From the NCBI GenBank assembly GCA_965277805.1, contig OZ255842.1, positions 672,001 to 736,000 on the forward strand: 64,000 bases of DNA, written 5' to 3'. Both the position numbers and the translations under genes were made by a program. The DNA comes from Candidatus Lustribacter sp. GTDB taxonomy: Bacteria; Vulcanimicrobiota; Vulcanimicrobiia; Vulcanimicrobiales; Vulcanimicrobiaceae. Below, piece after piece: positions 2,768 through 15,891 of the stretch (its first letter is position 1; each line of letters begins with the position of its first letter). Below the pieces are notes generated by a model. That model ran no database searches, had not been told where the DNA came from, and worked only from the letters and a program-made list of their open reading frames with translations.

Positions 2768-3094
2768 CTACACGCTAACGTAGATCATCCCGTCTTCGAT
2801 CATCACCGGAAACGTGACGGCCGCCAGGTCGGGGTTGGTGACGCTCTTGCCGGTGGCGAGGTCGAAGCGAAAGCGGTGCCACGGGCAGATGATCTCGCGG
2901 CGACCTTCGTGCAGGCAGCCCTCGTCGAGCGGCGCGCCTTTGTGCGGGCACGCATTGGAGAACGCATACACGTCGTCGTCGACGCGCATCAGCGCGATCT
3001 TGCGCCGGCGTACGGTTTCCAAACGCAGGGCGCCTTTCGGCAATTCGTCCAGCCGGCAAACGGCTTCGCGGGTGGTGTCGGTCGTGCTCATCAT
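2768..3094 (-). CDS. Rieske [2Fe-2S] ferredoxin
   Basis: 108 aa with CPHKG...CPWH and FDLATG. Confidence 0.9.
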   Translation of the reverse strand: MMSTTDTTREAVCRLDELPKGALRLETVRRRKIALMRVDDDVYAFSNACPHKGAPLDEGCLHEGRREIICPWHRFRFDLATGKSVTNPDLAAVTFPVMIEDGMIYVSV

Positions 3095-3114: not shown

Positions 3115-4115
3115 CTACGTTTTGAGTAGTGCCTCAGCATTGCTATGGAAGACTGCGCGTAGCTGGTTTTCGGTGAAGCCGCTCGAGCTTAACCCCGCGA
3201 CGTCCCTGGCCGCGACGCTGTACGGGAAGTCGGTACCGAACAGGATGTGCGAGGCGGGCACCAGCTTGGAGAGGGCGGTCATGGCCTCGATGTTCGCCGA
3301 TTGGGCGGTGTCGTAATAATACCGCGCGACGGTGTCCGCGACCGTGCCGGGCAGCATGGCAGCCCACTCGGGTGAACTCGCCTTGCGTAAAAAGCGGCCG
3401 ATCAGATACGGCATGCTGCCGCCGGCGTGCGACCAGATGATGCGTACGTTCGGAAAGCGCTTAGCGGCACCGTTGAAGAGATAATTGGCGATGGCGCGGG
3501 TCGTATCGGTCTGATATTCGATCATCGAGTCTTCGATCGAAGCGCCGAGGAGATTCGTGCAGCACGCGTTTGACGTCGGTGAACGAACACGAGCGCGCGG
3601 CGCCGATCGAGTTCGGCGAAGAGCGGGTCTAGCCGCGCGTCGCCGAGCCAGAGGCGGCCGCCATAGCTCGAGAACAGGCCAACACCGTCAGCCTTTAGCG
3701 TGTCGAGGGCGTACGCAACCTCATCGAGACTCGCCTTAACATCGGGAAGCGGCAATGCCGCGAACATGCCGTACCGTGCGGGATAGCGCCGTACGACATC
3801 GGCGGCGTAGGTATTGCATTCGCGCGCCAGACGCTTCGTGCTATCCGGGAAGCCGAAATCGAGCCCGGGGGTCGTTATCGAGAGGTAGGCGCGCCGTACG
3901 CCGGCGCGATCCATATCGTCCATCGACTTCTCGAGGGTCCACCCGAGGATCGGCGGAGCCAACTCGGCGCTCCCGACCTCGCGCACGTAGGCCGGCGGGA
4001 CGTAATGATGATGAACGTCGATTTTATCGGCGGTTTGTGCCTTGGCCAAAGCGGGGATTCCGGCCGCTAGGGCGGCCGTCGCGGCGATGAAGTTCGTTCG
4101 CGTGAACTGCGGCAC
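3115..4115 (-). pseudogene. Amidohydrolase_2-family (decarboxylase/hydratase-like) protein with a signal peptide, split by a 1-nt deletion (real or sequencing error)
   Basis: IDVHHH in ORF 3522-4115 and WSHAGG, YYDTA, LFGTDFP in ORF 3115-3525. One extra base at 3578-3579 restores [14 protein letters not shown]...[11 protein letters not shown]. Confidence 0.8.
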
Positions 4116-6531: not shown

Positions 6532-8232
6532 ATGACGTTTGGAGAGGCTTTGCGCGGCCGCGGCACCATCATCGCGATCGCGGTAGTCGGCGTTGCTGCG
6601 ACCGCGCTCGCGCTCTTGATGACGATCCGCCTAGCCTTTCAGGGCGCTACCCCGGATTCGTTCACGTTGGCCAACCTCGGAACGGTGTTTGCGGATCCGT
6701 TCGTGGCGCATGCGTTGCTCAACACGCTCGGATTCGCAACGGTCACGGGTCTGACGGCGTTCGCGTTTGGCGTGCCGATCGCGTGGCTCGCCGAACGCAC
6801 CGATCTTCCCGGGCGCGCCATCGTCATGCCGCTAATGACGATCGGACTGCTCGTGCCGGGTTTTTTCAATGCGATTGGCTGGCTCTTGCTCTTGCACCCC
6901 CGGATGGGCATGATCAACGTTTGGCTGATGCAAGGCTTACATCTCGCGAGCGCACCGCTCAGCGTGGTGTCGGTTGCGGGGATGGGCGTCGTCCAGGGCC
7001 TCGGTCTGGCCGCGCTAATGTTCGTGATGTGTGCGGCGGCGTTTCGCGCCCAAGACGCCACCCTCGAGGAAAGCGCGCAAGTGCACGGCTTGCGTTTCTT
7101 CGACCGGCTCGTTCGCATCACGCTACCGTTGATGTGGCCGAGCCTGCTCGCGGCCGGGATCTACGTGTTCATGGTGGGGCTTGCGGTCTTCGACGTGCCG
7201 GCCGTCATCGGGCTCAGCAACCGCATCTACACGTACAGCACGTTCGTATACGACCTTACCAACCCGAGCGCCGGCGGCCGCCCGAATTACGGCGTTGCGG
7301 GGGCATCGAGCCTCATCGTCATCTTGCTGGCCGGACTGCTCGGAACGTGGTATTTCCGCGTCGTGCGCCGTTCGCGCCGTTACGCCGTGGTGACCGGCAA
7401 AGGCTATCGGCCCGCGCCGTTCAGGCTCGGGCGCCGCGCCGTCGCGGCGTGGGCGTTCATCGCCGCATACCTTACGCTGAGCCTCGGGTTGCCGGGCTGC
7501 GTCCTGCTGTGGGCCTCGTTCTTGCCCTACTTCGCGCCGTTCTCGGCTGATGCGCTGGCGCGCGTCTCGCTTGCGAATTACGCGACGATTCCCTGGGCTG
7601 CGTTCTGGCACGCCGCGCTCAATAGCGCGATCGTCATGATTAGCGTTCCAACGATCACTATAGCGCTCTCGCTGGCGATATCGTGGGTCGTCGTGCGCTC
7701 GGGACTGCGTGTGGCGCGCGTCTTCGACGTCCTGGCGTTTCTGCCGCTCGCGATCCCGAGCGTCGTGTTCGCGGTCGGCGCCGCGGCCATCGCAATTTTT
7801 TGGCTGCCCCCGTGGATCCCGTTCTACGGCACTGTCGGTATTCTCATCGCGGTGCAGGTGATCGTCCAGTTGAGCTTCGGCACGCGGGTGCTCAACAACG
7901 CCCTCTTGCAAATTCATCGCGACCTCGACGACGCCGGTGCCACGTTCGGTCTGCGCGCGGTGGACGTGATCTGGCACGTGCTGCGGCCGCTGGTCGGCCC
8001 GGCGCTGCTGTCCGCGTGGCTTTGGATGGGTCTGCTCGCCTATCGCGAGCTGACCGTCGCGATGATGCTCGTGACCGATAAGAACATCACGCTTCCGGTC
8101 TTCATCTGGGGCGTCTACAGCGAAGGTCAGATCGGGCAGGCTGCGGCGCTGACGATTTTGCTTGGATGCGCGATCGTGCCGCTGATCGTGGCGTATTTCG
8201 CGGTCGCGCGGCGTGGCACGGCACCGGCATGA
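6532..8232 (+). CDS. ABC permease, FbpB/ThiP type (duplicated domain)
   Basis: Many hydrophobic segments and two EAA-like loops (LEESAQVHG, LDDAGATFG). Confidence 0.9.
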   Translation: MTFGEALRGRGTIIAIAVVGVAATALALLMTIRLAFQGATPDSFTLANLGTVFADPFVAHALLNTLGFATVTGLTAFAFGVPIAWLAERTDLPGRAIVMPLMTIGLLVPGFFNAIGWLLLLHPRMGMINVWLMQGLHLASAPLSVVSVAGMGVVQGLGLAALMFVMCAAAFRAQDATLEESAQVHGLRFFDRLVRITLPLMWPSLLAAGIYVFMVGLAVFDVPAVIGLSNRIYTYSTFVYDLTNPSAGGRPNYGVAGASSLIVILLAGLLGTWYFRVVRRSRRYAVVTGKGYRPAPFRLGRRAVAAWAFIAAYLTLSLGLPGCVLLWASFLPYFAPFSADALARVSLANYATIPWAAFWHAALNSAIVMISVPTITIALSLAISWVVVRSGLRVARVFDVLAFLPLAIPSVVFAVGAAAIAIFWLPPWIPFYGTVGILIAVQVIVQLSFGTRVLNNALLQIHRDLDDAGATFGLRAVDVIWHVLRPLVGPALLSAWLWMGLLAYRELTVAMMLVTDKNITLPVFIWGVYSEGQIGQAAALTILLGCAIVPLIVAYFAVARRGTAPA

Positions 8233-9293
8233 TCGCGGCGCGTGGCATCGTCCGCGATTTTCGCACCGGCGACCGCGCCGCGGCAGCGCTGGGCGGCGTT
8301 GATTTGACGATCGCAACCGGCGAATTCCTCGTTCTGCTCGGCCCGAGCGGCTCGGGGAAAACGACGCTCTTGCGCTGTGTGGCCGGACTGGAACGTCCGG
8401 ATGCGGGCGAGATCGAGCTCGCCGGCGTGCCGGTGTTCTCGGCGGCGCGCAAGATCGACGTGCGCCCCGAGGATCGCCGGCTCGGCATGGTGTTCCAATC
8501 CTATGCCGTCTGGCCGCACCTAACGGTGGCGCAAAACGTCGCGCTGCCGCTGACGCGCGGCGTGAACCGGATCGCGCGCGCCGACATGATGGCGCGGGTC
8601 GCGCGCGCGCTCGCTGCCGTGCAACTCGCGGCGCTCGGCGATCGGCCGGCCACGCTGCTCAGCGGCGGTCAGCAGCAGCGCGTAGCGCTCGCGATCGAGC
8701 CGCGTGCGCTGCTGATGGACGAGCCCTTAAGCAATCTCGATGCGCGGCTGCGCGGGGAGATCCGCAGCGAAATCAAAGCGACGGTCGCGCAGATCGGGAT
8801 CACGGTGTTGTACGTCACCCACGATCAGGACGAGGCGATGGCGCTCGCCGATCGCATCGCCGTCATGGACGGCGGACGCATCGTGCAGAGCGGTACGGCC
8901 GAGGATCTCTATCGCCGCCCGCTGACGCCGCGCATCGCCGAGTTCTTCGGGTCGATCAACTGGATCGCGGGCACCGTGCGCGCTCGGGGCATGGTCGAGA
9001 CGGCACTCGGTGCGCTGGCGGTGCGGAGCGACGCCCCGAGCGGGGCCGTGATGGTGGGAATTCGACCCGAGGATGTCCAGATCGCTAAGGTTCGAAATGG
9101 AACGGTCAACATGTTCGAAGCCCAGGTCGTCGACGATCGTTATGTTGGCGACCACCGGATTTGCCGCATTCGCGCGGCCGATTCTGTAATCACTGCAAAG
9201 CTCTCGCCCGATCGCGAGTATTGCGCCGGAAGTTCGGTCTGGGTTGGGCTACCCGCGGACCGGCTCCACGCATTTCCCTCGCAAACCGATTAG
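8229..9293 (+). CDS. ABC ATPase, FbpC/PotA type with C-terminal TOBE-like domain
   Basis: GPSGSGKT, LSGGQQQR, LLMDEP and VTHD motifs. Four residues (ARAL) are missing after the signature motif. Confidence 0.9.
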   Translation: MIAARGIVRDFRTGDRAAAALGGVDLTIATGEFLVLLGPSGSGKTTLLRCVAGLERPDAGEIELAGVPVFSAARKIDVRPEDRRLGMVFQSYAVWPHLTVAQNVALPLTRGVNRIARADMMARVARALAAVQLAALGDRPATLLSGGQQQRVALAIEPRALLMDEPLSNLDARLRGEIRSEIKATVAQIGITVLYVTHDQDEAMALADRIAVMDGGRIVQSGTAEDLYRRPLTPRIAEFFGSINWIAGTVRARGMVETALGALAVRSDAPSGAVMVGIRPEDVQIAKVRNGTVNMFEAQVVDDRYVGDHRICRIRAADSVITAKLSPDREYCAGSSVWVGLPADRLHAFPSQTD

Positions 9294-9379
9294 TTGCGAA
9301 GCTGCGTGCCGCTCGGTGGCCGCGCGAACATGAGCAATTACAGGAGAAGGGCCGGCAGCCCTAGGATTTTTCCACGGTT

Positions 9380-10018
9380 ATGTACGCGGAACTGATGGTC
9401 GATCGCCCGGTTGCCGACTTGCTCGGCGATTGGGACATCCTGGACGATCTGGTGAGTAAGAAGTTCTCGCGGTTCAAGCGTGTCGGCGACGGCATTCTGG
9501 GCATCCGGCGGCGCATGCTCGAGGGCAATCAGGTCGTCGATCCGGTCAAGGGCGTTTTGCCGATGTCGCTCGAGCTCGGCCCCAACGGCATCCACGCCGT
9601 CGGGCACGACATCCTGACGCTGCGCATGACCACCGGCGGCACGCCGCATCGCGTGCCGCACAACTTCGGCTTCTGGCATATCAACGATATGGACGAGCTC
9701 TACCTCACGCTGCCCTCGCCGCGGCCGGGCGATCCGGCCTACATGATCGTGATCATGCAGCATCCCGAAGGTGCCGAGGGCGAGAGCTTCGCGGAGTACT
9801 GCGAGAAGTGCCTGACGCTGATGTTCGAGCGGCACTACAACACCGGCCGGCTGGGTTTCGAAGGCTTCTTCAAAGCCAACGATGAGGCGATCATCGAGTA
9901 CAATTCCGATCCGAAGTTCCGTACGTGTCCGCAGTGCGGCCATCTCAATCCGTTGGGTTACACGTGGAATCCGGGCCGCGATACGCCCGAGACGGCCGCC
10001 GCGCGCCTGCAGTGGTGA
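9380..10018 (+). CDS. Uncharacterised protein distantly related to 3-hydroxyanthranilate 3,4-dioxygenase (copy A)
   Basis: GGTPHR...WHINDMDELY (H-x5-E) and YCEKC...RTCPQCGH (rubredoxin-like site). Confidence 0.65.
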   Translation: MYAELMVDRPVADLLGDWDILDDLVSKKFSRFKRVGDGILGIRRRMLEGNQVVDPVKGVLPMSLELGPNGIHAVGHDILTLRMTTGGTPHRVPHNFGFWHINDMDELYLTLPSPRPGDPAYMIVIMQHPEGAEGESFAEYCEKCLTLMFERHYNTGRLGFEGFFKANDEAIIEYNSDPKFRTCPQCGHLNPLGYTWNPGRDTPETAAARLQW

Positions 10019-11208
10019 TCCGGCGGATCGCGGCATTCGCCGTCGCGGCGCTGCTGTGCGCGGTCGCTGCAGCCGGTGCCGCAACGCCGTCGTCCACGAC
10101 ACCGTTCACGATCGACGTCATCGCGTCGTCGACCGGTGCGGGTGCGTACTTCGGTCAGCAGATGGGCGACGCGGTCAAGAACTACGAACTCGCGGCCAAC
10201 GCGAGCGGCGGCATTCGCGGCGTGCCCGTGCACTTCGAGTTTCACGACGACGAATCGCAGCCCGAAATCGCCGTCCAGCTGGCTCACGAGATCCTCGCGA
10301 AGCATCCGGCGGCCTTCCTCGGCGGCAGCGTGCAAGCCACGTGCAACGCGCTCGCGGCGCTGGCGGCCGGCACCACAGTGATGTATTGCATGTCGCCGGG
10401 TCTGATTCCGGAGCCGCGCGGATACGTATTCGCATCGTCGGCTTCGCTTCAGCATCTCGTGCCGGCGCTATTTCGCTACGTGCGCACGAGCGGTCACGTG
10501 CGCGTCGGCTTGCTCGTCACGACCGACGCGACCGGCCAGCGTTCGGACAAGATGATCGACTACACGCTGCACTTGCCGGAGAACAAATCGCTGGTCGTCG
10601 CCGGCTACGAACACTTCAGCGATAGCGACATCAGCGTCGCGGCGCAGATCGCGCACATCAAAGCCAACAATCCGCAGTTCCTGTATGTGTCGGCAGCCGG
10701 CACGCCGTTTCAAACCGTGCTGCACGGTATCATGGACGGCGGGCTCGCGAACGTTCCGATCATCACCTCGGCCTCGAACATGACGGACAAGCTGCTCGCG
10801 CCGTGGGCGAAGACGCCGCCGGCGCAACTGGACTTCAACGGGACGCCGTTCTGGGGCGCTACCGATCCCGACCGCCGGTTGAAGGCCGCGATCGCGGAAT
10901 ATCATGCCGCCTACGCGCGCGCGGGAACCGCACCGACGCCCAACGACGACTACGGCTGGGATCCGGCGAAGATCACCGTCGCCGCCTTTCGCGCGCTCGG
11001 CACCGGCGCGACCGCCGCGCAGATTCACGACTACATCGAAAACTTGCACGACTTCCCCGGCATCGGCGGGCTGTACGATTTCCGCAGCGGGGATCAGCAC
11101 GGTCTCGGCGACGATGCCACGGTGATCTTGCAGTGGGATCCGGCGAAGATGATCTTTTATCCGGTGAGCGGCCCGGCGGGCGTCGCGAGTCCCAAGCGAG
11201 GTAACTGA
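10015..11208 (+). CDS. ABC substrate-binding protein, LivJ/branched-chain class
   Basis: GTGA overlap, signal peptide, NASGGIRG, DDESQP and YDFRSGDQHGL. Confidence 0.88.
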   Translation: MIRRIAAFAVAALLCAVAAAGAATPSSTTPFTIDVIASSTGAGAYFGQQMGDAVKNYELAANASGGIRGVPVHFEFHDDESQPEIAVQLAHEILAKHPAAFLGGSVQATCNALAALAAGTTVMYCMSPGLIPEPRGYVFASSASLQHLVPALFRYVRTSGHVRVGLLVTTDATGQRSDKMIDYTLHLPENKSLVVAGYEHFSDSDISVAAQIAHIKANNPQFLYVSAAGTPFQTVLHGIMDGGLANVPIITSASNMTDKLLAPWAKTPPAQLDFNGTPFWGATDPDRRLKAAIAEYHAAYARAGTAPTPNDDYGWDPAKITVAAFRALGTGATAAQIHDYIENLHDFPGIGGLYDFRSGDQHGLGDDATVILQWDPAKMIFYPVSGPAGVASPKRGN

Positions 11209-11209
11209 G

Positions 11210-11794
11210 ATGACCACGAAATCGGAACCGGTCACGAACCACCGGATTCCCCTCGTCGGACCGGAAGCGCCGGACCGCGCATGGCAAGAAGCCAGCCGCA
11301 ACTATATCTGGTCGGCGCGGCATCCACGCGGCGCGTCGCGCTACGGCATCGTCGAGCTGTTGCCAGAAGGCGTCGTGCGTTTGCCCGATCGCGGACGGAT
11401 GTTCCACGTCATCCCGGCCGGTCGCGCGTTTCGCATCGAACACGGCTTCGGCTTCTGGCGCACGTGCGGCGCGGACGCGCTCTACATCGCGAGCGACTAC
11501 GACGAGGGTGTCGCGTACATGATGGTGATCAGCACCGCGCCCGAGTCGTATTCGACCGACACGCTGCACTGGACGTGCCCCGGCTGTGGCGCCGCGCTGC
11601 ATTCGGTCGACGTCCCGACCCGGCGCATTCACCTGACCGGCTTGAACGAACGCGCGCTCGCCGCGGTACGCGCCTTCAACGCCGATACTGCGTTGCGTAC
11701 GTGCGCGAAGTGCGCCGCGGTGCACCCGCCTGCCTACGGCTTCGAACCCGGCGACGACAATGATGAGGAGCGCAGTGCCCGTGCAGGCTGGTAA
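11210..11794 (+). CDS. HAO-related protein (copy C) lacking the H-x5-E metal motif
   Basis: HGFGFW aligns with HNFGFW of copy A. Contains WTCPGC...RTCAKC and ends in ARAGW. Confidence 0.6.
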   Translation: MTTKSEPVTNHRIPLVGPEAPDRAWQEASRNYIWSARHPRGASRYGIVELLPEGVVRLPDRGRMFHVIPAGRAFRIEHGFGFWRTCGADALYIASDYDEGVAYMMVISTAPESYSTDTLHWTCPGCGAALHSVDVPTRRIHLTGLNERALAAVRAFNADTALRTCAKCAAVHPPAYGFEPGDDNDEERSARAGW

Positions 11795-11795
11795 C

Positions 11796-12449
11796 ATGTA
11801 CTACGCTGAGATCACCGTCCCCGAGCGCATCGACGCGCTGCTCGACGATTGGGATTTGCTCGACGATCGCGTGATCAAGAAGTTCACCACGTTCAAGGAT
11901 GTCGGCGAGAACGTCGTCGGCGTGCGGCGGCGGATGGTGACGAAAGATCCCGTCACGGTCCTCGATCCGGCCAAGGGGCTGTTGCCGGAATCGGTCGAGA
12001 TCGGACCCTCCGGCCTGATCACGCAGACGCACGAGATCCTCTCGCTGCGCATCACGGTCGGCGGCGCGCCGCATCGCGTACCGCACAGCATGGGCTTCTG
12101 GCACATCAACGACGTCGACGAACTCTATCTGACGTTGCCGCCGCCCGCGCCCGGCGAACCGGCGTATTTTCTCGTCATCATGGGCAACCCCATGCCGTCT
12201 AGCAACGAAGGCGAAAGCTGGGCGCAATACTGCCAAGAATGCCTGACGATGCTGCACGAGCACTACTACAAGACCGCGCAGTTGGGAATGGACGGCCATT
12301 GGCGCGCCAACCTCGCCGCGATTCGCGAATACAACAGCGATGTGAAGTTCCGCACGTGTCCCGAGTGCGGTCACGTGAACCCTCTGGCATACGTGTGGAA
12401 CACCACCAAGGATACGCCGGAAGAACGGTTGGCGCGCGAGCAGTGGTGA
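11796..12449 (+). CDS. HAO-related protein (copy B), close paralogue of 9380-10018
   Basis: ATG 11796 aligns with the start of copy A. Contains GGAPHRVPHSMGFWHINDVDELY and YCQEC...RTCPECGH. Confidence 0.65.
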   Translation: MYYAEITVPERIDALLDDWDLLDDRVIKKFTTFKDVGENVVGVRRRMVTKDPVTVLDPAKGLLPESVEIGPSGLITQTHEILSLRITVGGAPHRVPHSMGFWHINDVDELYLTLPPPAPGEPAYFLVIMGNPMPSSNEGESWAQYCQECLTMLHEHYYKTAQLGMDGHWRANLAAIREYNSDVKFRTCPECGHVNPLAYVWNTTKDTPEERLAREQW

Positions 12450-12542: not shown

Positions 12543-13448
12543 ATGACGCACGCGCAGCAGAAAAATGACAGCCCGGCGGATTGGACCACGGCCATCGAGG
12601 AGCGCCGTGCGATTGCGCCTACGGCGGCCTTGCAAGGCGCGAATTTACGCGGCTTCGAGATCGAGTGGCTGCTGTTGCGGCCCTGCGTCTTCCCGGCCTC
12701 GATCGTGCGGGATCTGTCGGTCATCGCGACGCTCGGTTCGGGATTCGTCATCGAGACCGAAGCCGGCCGGCGCATCACCACCGAACACGGCGAGATCTAC
12801 TTGCTCTCGCCGTCGCTGCGCCGTCGCGCGTCGTTTCGCCAACGCGGCGAAGTCTTGCGCATCACGTACGGAAACGCGCTCGTGGGCCAAATCGCCGCGG
12901 AGATCGGCATGACCGGCGTGCTCGACGCGCTGACGTATCAGCGGCTCACCGATCCCGCGGTCTACGAGATCGTGCACATGCTGGCCGAGGAAGCGCGGCC
13001 GGGCGGTGCGCGCGCGCCGATCTATAGCGCCTCGCTCGGACTCGCCTTGCTCGGACACGTGCTGCGTGGCTGTCCGCCGGCGCAACAGCGCAATGCGGTC
13101 GTCGATGCCGGGCTCTCGCCGCAGCGTCTCGCGCGCAGCCGGCAGTATATCGAAAACCGGCTCGGCGGCGATCTGACCGTCGCCGAGATTGCCGGCGCGG
13201 TCGATATGAGCGTGTTTCACTTCGCGCGCGCGTTCAAACAGTCAACCGGGAAGACACCGCACGCCTACGTGCTCGAGCGGCGCATCGCCGCAGCCCAGAG
13301 CCTCGTGCTCAACACCACCCGCCCGCTCAACGAAATTTCGTCCGAGCTCGGCTTCAGCAATCCCAGTCACTTCAGCGCGGTCTTCGGACGCCTCACGGGC
13401 ACGTCGCCGTCGGCTTATCGTTCACACAAAGATGTAAGGAGCACATGA
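12543..13448 (+). CDS. AraC-family transcriptional regulator
   Basis: C-terminal double HTH: MSVFHFARAFKQSTG and LGFSNPSHFSAVFGRLTGTSPSAYR. Confidence 0.92.
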   Translation: MTHAQQKNDSPADWTTAIEERRAIAPTAALQGANLRGFEIEWLLLRPCVFPASIVRDLSVIATLGSGFVIETEAGRRITTEHGEIYLLSPSLRRRASFRQRGEVLRITYGNALVGQIAAEIGMTGVLDALTYQRLTDPAVYEIVHMLAEEARPGGARAPIYSASLGLALLGHVLRGCPPAQQRNAVVDAGLSPQRLARSRQYIENRLGGDLTVAEIAGAVDMSVFHFARAFKQSTGKTPHAYVLERRIAAAQSLVLNTTRPLNEISSELGFSNPSHFSAVFGRLTGTSPSAYRSHKDVRST

Positions 13449-14695
13449 CCGCATCATCTCAAGATCTTCAGGGCTCGCCGGACGAGAAGTGGGACCCCGC
13501 GTGGAGCAACGCGGTATTCTCGCTAGCCGAGCGCGACCGCCGCTGGGCGAAGGTACGGGCGCTGATGAAGCGCGACGGCATCGATTTGCTCGTGTGCATG
13601 CCGTGCACGAATTCGCACGACCGCGGCGCCGCCGACGCGCGCTACCTCACGCAACTTGGAGAGAACAGCGACGAACAATCGGTCGCGTTCCCGATCGAAG
13701 GCGACGTGCGGGCCTGGCACAGCCGGCCCGGCGTGTGGCCGTCCTCGAACTGGTTCTCGGATATCCGTTCGGCCGGCCGCGGCACGGGCGGTGCGACGAT
13801 TAGCAGCTACATCAACGAATTTCCGCAGTACAAGAAGGCGCGCATCGCGATCGCCGGGCTCACCTCCACGCCGATGACGCACTGCCGCGCGGCCGAGGGC
13901 GAGATCAATTGGCAGTCGGTGGAGATCCTCAAGAGCAATTTCCCGCAAGCCGAGTTCGTGAGCGCGTCGACCGTGCTCGGCGAAGCGCGCTGGGTCAAGA
14001 GCGATGAAGAGATCGAATTCCTGCGCAAAGGCGTCGAGATCGCCGAGCTGACGCTCGATGCGATCCGCGAAACCGCGCGCGAGGGCGTTCCGGAACGCGA
14101 TGTGTTCGCCGAGATGATGAAGGTCAATGCGAAGGCCGGCGGCAGCTTCACACCGATGTTCGGCTGGATCACGGGACCGCAGGGCCGGCCATACCACCGC
14201 CTCGAGCAGCCGTCGTTCCGCAAATTTCAGGACAAAGATATGCTCAGCGTGGAGATCGAGGGCCGGTGGGGCGGTTACATCGCGCAGATCGATCAGTCGG
14301 CAGTGATCAACGCGCCGATCGACGGCCTCGACGATGCGATGAAGCTGGCGTATGAAGCCTACGACCGCACGTTGGAATTACTCAAACCGGGCGTGACGAT
14401 GGGCGAACTGGCCGACACCGCGGTGATGACGGCGCTCGGCGGCCGGCTGCGTGCGGGTCTCGGCTTCCACGGCCGCGGCACCGGGGATGACGGTCCGCTC
14501 TTGATCGCAGGCGTGCCGCTGAAGCCGGAGATTCGCGATCTGGCGCTCGTTGAGAACTGCTGCTTTGCCGTGAAGCCGAGCGTGCATTTCGACGGCGTTG
14601 CCGAGTATTGCCGTTGGGGTGATTCGGCGGTCGTGGGCAAGAACGGCGGCGTGCGCCTCGGCACGCGCCCGCAAGAACTGATCGTCCTGAAGTGA
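13445..14695 (+). CDS. M24 (creatinase-like) hydrolase with degenerate metal ligands
   Basis: FSLAERDRRW, RWVKSDEEI, FHGRG, FAVKP and RWGDSAVV. Paralogue of 755-2032. Confidence 0.8.
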   Translation: MTASSQDLQGSPDEKWDPAWSNAVFSLAERDRRWAKVRALMKRDGIDLLVCMPCTNSHDRGAADARYLTQLGENSDEQSVAFPIEGDVRAWHSRPGVWPSSNWFSDIRSAGRGTGGATISSYINEFPQYKKARIAIAGLTSTPMTHCRAAEGEINWQSVEILKSNFPQAEFVSASTVLGEARWVKSDEEIEFLRKGVEIAELTLDAIRETAREGVPERDVFAEMMKVNAKAGGSFTPMFGWITGPQGRPYHRLEQPSFRKFQDKDMLSVEIEGRWGGYIAQIDQSAVINAPIDGLDDAMKLAYEAYDRTLELLKPGVTMGELADTAVMTALGGRLRAGLGFHGRGTGDDGPLLIAGVPLKPEIRDLALVENCCFAVKPSVHFDGVAEYCRWGDSAVVGKNGGVRLGTRPQELIVLK

Positions 14696-14703
14696 GGCAT
14701 ACG

Positions 14704-15891
14704 ATGAGCCGTGCATTCAAGTTTGCGTGCGCGACGCTGGTGGCCGCGCTCATCGGCGGCGCGACGCTGCCGGCGAGCGCGCAACCGGCGCCCTACACGT
14801 TCGAAGTCATTCTCCCGATGACCGGGCAGGCGGCGTTTTCGGGCCAAGCCGAAAGCCAGACGCTCTCTGCGTTCGAGAAGTACGTCAACGCCAACGGCGG
14901 CGTGCGCGGCGGCCCGATCCATTTCGACATCAAAGACGATCAGACGAGCCCCCAAGTCGCGCTGCAACTGACCAACGCGCTGGTCGCGCAGCGCGTGCCG
15001 GTGATCTTCGGCTCGGCCGTGGTGGCGACGTGCGCCTCGATCGGCGCCGCGGTGTCGGCAACGGGTCCGGTGCAGTTCTGCTTTTCGCCCGGCTATTCTC
15101 CGCCGAAGGATTCCTATTCGTTTGCAACCGGCGCAACGATCCTGGCGCTGACGAAGACGATTCTGACGTACGCGAAGCTGCGCGGCTTTCACCGTATCGC
15201 GTTCCTCGGCTCGACCGACGCGACCGGTATCGCATCGGCTGCGGTCAACGCCGAACTGTTCGCATCACCCGATCTGCGTGGCATCCAGCTGGTCGCCGAC
15301 GAGCGCGTCAGCACGGGTGACGTCTCCGCTGCCGCGCAGATGGCGAAAATCAAGGCCGCGAAGCCGGACGCCCTGTGGACATCGACCAGCGGCACCGTGT
15401 TCGGCACCGTGATCCACGCGATGTCCGACGTCGGGCTCGACGTGCCGGTGCTCACGACCACCGCCAATGCCAGCGCCGCGCAGCTCAAACCGATGGCCGC
15501 GCTACTGCCGCACGAACTCTACTTCAACGGCGTGCCCTTCCAGCTCGGCGATTTGCTCAAGGATGCCGACGTTCGCAAACAAGGCCGGACGTTCGCCGAC
15601 GCTTTCAAGCTGATCGGCGTCGAGCCGACGCCGCTGCACACGCTCTCGTGGGATTCGCTGCTGATCACGGTCGCGGCGCTGCGTCAATTCGGCCCGTCGA
15701 TGACCGCCGACCAGCTGAAAACCTACACGCTGGGGCTACGCCACTTCCCGGCACTGAACGGCAACTACAATTTCTCATCCGGCGATCAGCACGGCCTCGA
15801 TTCCAACGCGGTCGTCATCGTCGGGTGGGACCGTGACAAACAAGACTTCTTCCCCGCCAGCCAACTCGGAGGCATCCCGATCAAACGATAA
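14704..15891 (+). CDS. ABC substrate-binding protein, LivJ class
   Basis: Signal peptide, LPMTG, NANGGVRG, DDQTSP and GDQHGL. Confidence 0.88.
   Translation: MSRAFKFACATLVAALIGGATLPASAQPAPYTFEVILPMTGQAAFSGQAESQTLSAFEKYVNANGGVRGGPIHFDIKDDQTSPQVALQLTNALVAQRVPVIFGSAVVATCASIGAAVSATGPVQFCFSPGYSPPKDSYSFATGATILALTKTILTYAKLRGFHRIAFLGSTDATGIASAAVNAELFASPDLRGIQLVADERVSTGDVSAAAQMAKIKAAKPDALWTSTSGTVFGTVIHAMSDVGLDVPVLTTTANASAAQLKPMAALLPHELYFNGVPFQLGDLLKDADVRKQGRTFADAFKLIGVEPTPLHTLSWDSLLITVAALRQFGPSMTADQLKTYTLGLRHFPALNGNYNFSSGDQHGLDSNAVVIVGWDRDKQDFFPASQLGGIPIKR

Follow-up and report, generated by a model that had tools for sequence, protein, structure and literature searches.

Three neighbouring genes in Candidatus Lustribacter sp. 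raise the question of whether their products are separate ring-cleaving dioxygenases or subunits of one enzyme. They were found in the window, the whole 64,000-nucleotide stretch analysed (contig OZ255842.1, positions 672,001 to 736,000, forward strand), where open reading frames of about 200 codons at 9380–10018, 11210–11794 and 11796–12449 surround the gene of a LivJ-class periplasmic binding protein (PF13458; 10015–11208). All four are on the + strand, and the binding-protein gene lies between the first two. This arrangement was recorded correctly in a preliminary description of the DNA, in which the three products were taken for equivalent paralogues resembling 3-hydroxyanthranilate dioxygenase (HAO, or NbaC). 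According to the present analysis, the system very probably comprises a putative catalytic subunit (A), a homologous non-catalytic subunit (B) and a dedicated Rieske ferredoxin, both subunits being rewired HAO-derived cupins with a rubredoxin-like tail of four cysteines (Cys4).

Two Subunit Types at the Locus

The 212-residue product of the first gene (A) and the 217-residue product of the third (A′) were 58% identical (E 3e-88), and the 194-residue product of the middle gene (B) shared 29–31% identity with A and A′ (E 2e-20 and 2e-21). The similarity among the three goes well beyond chance. GFW, two CxxC pairs and a terminal AR-x-x-W were common to all of them, as previously reported. GG-x-PHR and WHINDxDE, assigned there to two copies, were in fact carried by the first and third genes; the middle gene had neither and read GRAFRIEH..FWRTCGADA where the A copies have G-x-PHR and WHINDxDE. 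The candidate ligand residues of A were H90, H100, N102 and E106, with C141, C144, C183 and C186 in the tail, and the corresponding residues of A′ were H93, H103, N105 and E109. In B, H90, H100 and E106 were replaced by F, R and A, and C123, C126, C165 and C168 were kept. The view of three equivalent paralogues was thereby given up, B being without the metal-ligand motifs, and the set consists of two subunit types (A, B and A′). The genes were tightly packed: the start of the binding-protein gene overlapped the stop of A, and single bases separated the binding-protein gene from B and B from A′, which starts 1 nt past the stop of B.

HAO Ancestry and Predicted Fold

A Pfam scan of A, B and A′ gave nothing above cut-off and no PF06052 match at E 0.1. 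Among the NCBIfam profiles, HAO alone matched the A/B proteins, on the C-terminal half, with 22.5–33.6 bits for PRK13264 (cut-off 220; E 9e-5 to 4e-8) and 18.4–24.7 bits for TIGR03037 (cut-off 146). The AlphaFold models were confident, with predicted local distance difference test (pLDDT) values of 87.5 for A and 92.6 for B. HAO was the top and only clear fold match of A (Foldseek E 6e-5; VIA Z 9.2, root-mean-square deviation 4.2, 138 residues aligned to 5v26) and of B (Foldseek E 1e-4; VIA Z 9.4, deviation 3.0, 141 residues aligned to 5v26). The Foldseek template modelling scores (TM-scores) to HAO were low (0.3–0.46), and other cupins fell below VIA Z 4. Such a clear yet incomplete match is what sequential aligners would be expected to give for a rearranged barrel.

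The HAO-like fold of cupin plus Cys4 tail was present in the predicted models of both A and B, well above unrelated rows. The relationship to HAO claimed earlier was therefore borne out, both by the PRK13264 matches below cut-off and by HAO being the sole clear fold match for the two models, and the Foldseek comparison that had been suggested as a check returned an HAO-like cupin fold for each. By computation, A and B descend from HAO. The family would resemble HAO at the metal site but lies outside HAO by score, motif order and substrate residues. The host genome also contains a canonical HAO, aligned to 1yfu without gaps, beside amidohydrolase and RidA genes. As a separate observation, a divergent HAO subfamily with 1762 relatives was represented at L004:6517-7047 (PF06052 77 bits), with ARGREY in place of GGPNxR and again beside a RidA gene.

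Probable Relocation of a Hairpin in the Cupin Barrel

In the definition of the cupin domain, motif 1 is followed by motif 2 (PMC3765361). In A, this order was inverted. Against an HAO profile of 19 sequences, residues 67–93 of A aligned to HAO 73–97 (GTPH on VPHS), residues 94–113 formed an insert containing WHINDxDE, and residues 114–193 were collinear. Thus, the motif-2 segment of A, G-T-P-H90-R-V-P-H94 (9638–9661, +), corresponds to HAO VPHSPQR and precedes motif 1. The motif-1 hairpin, FWH100INDMDE106LY within residues 94–113 (9659–9718, +), appears as a 20-residue insert between motif 2 and the next strand. The preliminary description had placed the motifs in the order of HAO; this was overturned, as GTPHR aligns to VPHS (motif 2) upstream of H-x5-E. 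The equation of GG-x-PHR with the HAO loop GGPNxR was likewise rejected, as the segment aligns to VPHS.

When the insert was moved before residue 60, it aligned to RseFHinp.dE.fYql, and A gained in HAO score, reaching 150 instead of 127 (E 1e-23 instead of 7e-20). Two comparable swaps scored 144 and 141, and none of 40 control swaps exceeded 129.4. In a separate scan, which covered 653 swaps in 12 sequences, the native order scored 36.1 bits, the median was 36.3 and the best value 42.9; all 12 top swaps broke between residues 91 and 97. The same insert was found in B, where relocation raised the score against the HAO-like family X1, described below, from 139 to 150. Furthermore, strands 89–91, 99–102, 106–111 and 120–127 in the model of A fitted the relocated order. 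Coevolution analysis (effective 98–171 sequences, hence underpowered) gave the pair 110–122 and a few plausible strand pairs among noise and left the topology undecided.

The usual order of strands in a jelly roll is B-C-D-E-F-G-H-I. From the alignments, the order in both subunits appears to be B-E-F-G-H-C-D-I, with hairpin C-D moved from between B and E to between H and I; the rearrangement would thus be the relocation of a hairpin, not a circular permutation. The barrel, and in A the 2-His-1-Glu site with N102 nearby, are predicted to survive this change because all three new junctions sit at one end of the barrel.

Putative Metal Site and Substrate Residues

H90, H100, N102, E106 and the four cysteines were invariant in all 98 aligned A proteins. 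The first four aligned to HAO H95, H51, D53 and E57 (1yfu numbering), of which we take H95, H51 and E57 to be the iron ligands. Coordination of iron by two His and one Glu is described in PMC10306065. For the A site, we infer the identity of the metal and the geometry of its ligands. The triad H90/H100/E106 was kept in 173 of the 285 family rows with a full core and lost in the B clade. In the other 112 rows, position 100 was Arg in 93, position 106 never had Glu, the majority residue, and the cysteines were retained in 110–111. In a FastTree phylogeny of 94 sequences, the midpoint separated ligand-less from ligand-bearing proteins, with supports of 0.89 and 0.998, apart from two poorly aligned ligand-less rows on the A side. 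Computation thus separates A from B by their ligands.

R47, R99 and E110 are presumably the substrate residues of HAO, with Glu110 as the catalytic base. The R47 position (A residue 96) was F in 75, M in 11 and L in 6 of the 98 A proteins, and the R99 position (A residue 94) was H in 93 of them. Because these two positions and that of E110 are replaced, 3-hydroxyanthranilate is, judged from the sequences, an unlikely substrate.

Predicted Pairing of the Subunits and a Probable Ferredoxin Partner

Gene linkage was evaluated in two sets. The first was made up of the window, three other loci of the host and 23 GTDB loci, 27 in all, several of which are close kin or overlapping; the second comprised eight genomes with exactly two family matches, chosen blind to gene context. 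In the first set, A directly adjoined B on the same strand for 24 of 31 B genes, and one further A had been missed by the gene caller. A Rieske ferredoxin gene adjoined 12 of the 31 B genes and was present in 14 of the 27 loci. In the second set, A, B and a Rieske ferredoxin stood in a row in all eight genomes. Moreover, the ferredoxin was fused to A in protein P0163 and to B in P0239. The genes of A, B and the ferredoxin are hence linked, and the Rieske ferredoxin is the most constant partner of A/B; both it and the alpha/beta pairing had been overlooked in the preliminary description.

A profile of ferredoxins from other phyla was used to score the ferredoxins of the host. The top two reached 134.9 and 134.5 bits, and the next, an unlinked one, only 80. 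One of them is encoded between B and A at another locus, and the other (134.5 bits) is the product of window positions 2771–3094 (−; gene at 2768–3094), 6 kb upstream of A; the fused ferredoxin domains picked the same two. The window ferredoxin, whose clade is linked or fused to A/B elsewhere, is thus a probable partner of A/B. A different ferredoxin, of the Fer2 type, was encoded directly upstream in two of three loci with an early-branching single-gene form of the family.

A and B were also modelled as a heterodimer. The A′–B model scored 0.89, whereas the best control scored 0.01; contacts agreed between runs at 88% or more, and partner pLDDT was at least 90. The mark for a dimer, which holds roughly for the A′–B job, was reached by 116 of 157 solved pairs and by 2 of 215 mismatched ones. 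The modelled interface contained the first CxxC of B (122–127); that of A′ was not listed in it.

Candidate Origin and Distribution

The same genomes carry an uncharacterised collinear HAO-like pair, X1 (without motif-1 ligands, PAGTPHR) and X2 (H-x-N-x3-E), encoded as two genes or as a fused X1-X2, with 14 fused open reading frames among the loci examined. Annotation of the 79 metagenome X1/X2 loci found was limited to weak HAO. Residues 60–93 of A scored 29.6 against X1, 22.1 against HAO and 9 against X2, and residues 94–113 scored 27.9 against X2, 19.9 against HAO and 9 against X1. In the fused X1-X2, GTPHR already precedes H-x-N-x3-E, and therefore deletions would yield the order seen in A. 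The rewired A may accordingly be hypothesized to have arisen from a fused X1-X2 by deletions, the segments compared being short. An X2/X1 pair (P0424/P0423) was located at L069:8966-10236 (G000:C1, about 2.16 Mb) and a fused X1-X2 at L005:7002-8255. The early-branching single-gene form of the rewired family was seen near X1/X2 genes, at L101:2708-3400, L107:5536-6186 and L113:1487-2140, and it retains Glu at the HAO E110 position. A suspected identity of X1/X2 with PnpCD was unsupported, and X1 matched the PnpCD small subunit at chance level (E 0.24).

Relatives amounted to 107 of 663 candidates for A and 47 of 236 for B, none with a Pfam label, and a profile search of 1.84 billion representatives gave 166 matches at E 0.001. 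The host genome has four A/B loci. Two of 301 genomes of the host phylum carried the family (four more matches were HAO-type genes), as did 12 of 151 sampled genomes of Stellaceae, the family of record G302. Titles of records with related loci named Eremiobacterota/Vulcanimicrobiota, Alphaproteobacteria (including Stellaceae) and Chloroflexota. The distribution of the family thus appears patchy. Some soil and peat bacteria carried five or more copies of A. The ESM Atlas returned unnamed matches only, all under 0.9. In line with the earlier suggestion of an undescribed family, the libraries searched gave no full-length match to a characterised family. Nor did the literature covered, which excludes most subscription journals, contain a description of it.

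Proposed Reaction and Competing Explanations

We infer the reaction type, the role of the ferredoxin and the substrate class as follows. A neighbouring flavin or Rieske hydroxylase would make a hydroxylated aromatic or heteroaromatic compound, and A would bind this product, activate O2 at Fe(II) and open the ring. The ferredoxin would re-reduce iron oxidised in turnover, possibly via a Cys4 site. The open-chain product would then be processed by a hydrolase, which in the window would be the M24 protein. In the window, A′ would pair with B, and the extra A would share B or serve a related substrate. Cleavage of the ring of an aminophenol or N-heterocycle is plausible. A route from hydroxylase through A/B to hydrolase, with no semialdehyde dehydrogenase involved, is reminiscent of dihydroxypyridine routes whose ring opening gives an N-formyl amide. 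Taken whole, and with the reaction included, the reading of A/B as an Fe(II)-dependent alpha/beta dioxygenase that cleaves rings and is rescued by a ferredoxin is held tentatively, a little short of evenly balanced. It draws on the descent from HAO and on reports of ferredoxins that rescue extradiol enzymes (PMC3318906).

Several observations weigh against ring cleavage with rescue, or against the evidence assembled for it. Judged from reference titles, the rescuing ferredoxins on record are chloroplast-type, not Rieske-type, and near-constant linkage and fusion fit a supply of electrons for turnover equally well. Among the 98 A proteins, 85 had Met and 13 had Gln at the position of HAO Glu110 (A residue 126), ligand geometry is not readable from the models, and no aldehyde dehydrogenase was seen among the A/B neighbours scanned, which were part of the total. 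Seven of the 31 B genes lacked an adjacent A according to the script, and A genes outnumbered B genes (45 vs 31), some of them without an adjacent B. The pass of the A′–B dimer may reflect likeness to HAO dimers, the controls being without A–A and B–B pairs, and the gain on relocation was modest for B against HAO (108 to 112).

The same architecture might instead be electron-fed. A Rieske ferredoxin, kept reduced by a reductase whose gene lies elsewhere, would then feed the catalytic iron at each turnover via the Cys4 iron of B or A, and the reaction would, as in Rieske oxygenases, be hydroxylation, dealkylation or another oxygenation. This explanation was kept as a genuine if doubtful possibility because linkage is near-constant, fusions occur, the ferredoxins are of two unrelated types and the E110 position is not kept. 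It is favoured by the ferredoxin gene right after B in all eight minimal loci and beside 12 of 31 B genes, by the fusions P0163 and P0239 within a dedicated ferredoxin clade, and by the Fer2-type ferredoxin before the early single-gene form in two of three loci. The CxxC of B (122–127) in the modelled interface, the changed E110 and R99 positions and the lack of a semialdehyde dehydrogenase seen nearby also agree with it. Two of the four host A/B loci, however, were without a ferredoxin of the clade in the stretches examined, and separate hydroxylases already stand beside many loci. No ferredoxin reductase was found among the scanned neighbours, although the Rieske oxygenases of the window are likewise without one. 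We know of no ferredoxin-fed cupin oxygenase. More specifically, A/B could form a new class of multicomponent oxygenase in which the Cys4 iron, a non-catalytic site in HAO, relays ferredoxin electrons to the 2-His-1-Glu iron, and in which the fold was derived by deletions from a tandem fusion of ligand-less and catalytic HAO-like parts; this is considered rather unlikely.

A function other than oxygenation is improbable. A and B would then act as a metal-dependent isomerase, lyase or decarboxylase, or serve neighbouring oxygenases as an iron or redox accessory, and Zn would occupy the Cys4 sites. Cupins with His/Glu sites perform many chemistries (PMC3765361), the substrate residues of HAO are lost, and up to five or more paralogues are clustered. 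Yet the nearest relatives by sequence and by fold are O2-using HAOs, the ferredoxin partner implies redox chemistry, and genes of binding proteins lie between those of the pair, as with enzymes that have substrates of their own. A picture built on the preliminary description, with three HAO-like dioxygenases that are independent, collinear with HAO and active on 3-hydroxyanthranilate or a close aminophenol, agrees with C-terminal halves collinear with HAO and with an H-x5-E that matches HAO H51-E57, but it is very hard to maintain against an inverted motif order, a B subunit without ligands, the positions of R47, R99 and E110 that are not kept, and a canonical HAO already in the genome.

Neighbouring Genes

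Downstream of A′, an AraC regulator (12543–13448, +), an M24/creatinase-fold protein (13445–14695, +) and a second LivJ-class binding protein (14692–15891, +) are encoded, the last overlapping the stop of the M24 gene. The preliminary description had assigned a binding protein, AraC and M24 to one module. Linkage was confirmed for binding proteins and for one M24 clade, and AraC was rejected as a module gene, being local and present only here and in a 95%-identical relative. Relatives of the interleaved LivJ-class protein were found at other A/B loci, and equally close ones elsewhere in the host genome. Hydroxylases of the flavin and Rieske types, hydrolases and binding proteins were also encoded near A/B; no ferredoxin reductase was found among the A/B neighbours scanned. 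NMT1 binding proteins (6 vs 5.6 expected) and luciferase-like monooxygenases (0 vs 0.7) were not enriched near the four host loci. Seed profiles counted 322 NMT1-like and 94 LivJ-like open reading frames in the 5.5 Mb host genome.

The M24 clade was encoded within 3 kb of all four host A/B loci. In the first set, 24 of the 27 loci carried it; in the second, none of the eight did, three of them being contigs of 8–13 kb. With none of these eight carrying the clade, M24 was rejected as an obligatory partner, and it appears to be a frequent accessory. When the M24 protein was aligned to prolidase 1pv9, E270, Q281, T346, K377 and G392 stood at the ligand positions, where we take the dinuclear metal ligands to be D, D, H, E and E; four of the five are scored as changed. 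Within the clade, Q281 was conserved in 35/35, K377 in 33/35 and G392 in 35/35. Creatinase-type hydrolases likewise lack the prolidase metal ligands. Ten members of the clade were counted in the host genome, with E270, Q281, H342, R344 and K377 near-invariant. Some of the clade's genes lie beside luciferase-like, glyoxalase-fold and aldolase genes, and an undescribed chemistry is possible.

The window is a dense island of aromatic catabolism with at least seven Rieske oxygenase alpha genes, LigAB, a hydantoinase pair and luciferase-like genes; no ferredoxin reductase was found among the window genes scanned. Two genes differed from the 95%-identical locus L007. An amidohydrolase (PF04909; 3118–4115, −) was split into two open reading frames, one base short near 3578, and is a single gene in L007, which reflects either a frameshift or an assembly error. 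An ABC ATPase (8229–9293, +) was 12 bases short near 8685, just past the signature motif, and may be impaired. A small hairpin with a T-rich tail (9348–9372, +) lies directly upstream of the start of A; terminator-like sites were at chance level regionally, and promoter and terminator scans of the region gave chance level only.

Significance and Comparison With Known Systems

If the proposed rearrangement is true, A/B would provide a clean example of a rewired fold, in which a cupin barrel has been rearranged in nature, in a non-circular way, and has kept its metal site. A candidate parent, the fused X1-X2, is present in the same genomes, and the route of rewiring is therefore testable. The ferredoxin link makes the role of the rubredoxin-like site in HAO-type enzymes directly testable. 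The family escapes both Pfam and NCBIfam and points to unrecognised catabolism of aromatics or N-heterocycles; it may represent a novel ring-opening enzyme or else an electron-fed oxygenase of a novel type.

Compared with known systems, A and B share a cupin barrel and a CxxC...CxxC tail with HAO/NbaC (PF06052, TIGR03037, PRK13264; PDB 1yfu, 1zvf and 5v26), and A also shares the His-x5-Glu and Pro-His motifs. Unlike HAO, A/B has motif 2 first, two gene products of which one is without iron ligands, and a dedicated Rieske ferredoxin, and the R47, R99 and E110 positions of A are F/M/L, H and M/Q. The hydroquinone dioxygenase PnpCD/HapCD is, we assume, a two-subunit cupin with one catalytic subunit and an H-x-N-x3-E motif, as in A/B; PnpCD (4zxa) was not among the listed sequence or fold matches of A or B. 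The fold of catechol 2,3-dioxygenase differs from that of A/B. Its XylT-type ferredoxin restores the oxidised Fe(II) ring-cleaving enzyme (PMC3318906), as proposed for A/B, but is chloroplast-type, not Rieske. Multicomponent Rieske oxygenases resemble A/B in having a catalytic and a structural subunit and an HcaC/AndAb-like ferredoxin. Unlike them, A and B are cupins with Cys4 sites, without a linked reductase among the scanned neighbours, and apart from the rare ferredoxin fusions no Rieske domain (PF00355) was found in either. The X1/X2 pair differs from A/B in its normal motif order and in its metagenome surroundings, with M24 beside 2 of 30 and a ferredoxin beside 1 of 30 loci of at least 5 kb. 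Like A/B, it combines a catalytic-looking and a ligand-less partner, both with Cys4 tails, and in the host genome its neighbours include the M24 clade seen at A/B loci and a Rieske ferredoxin.

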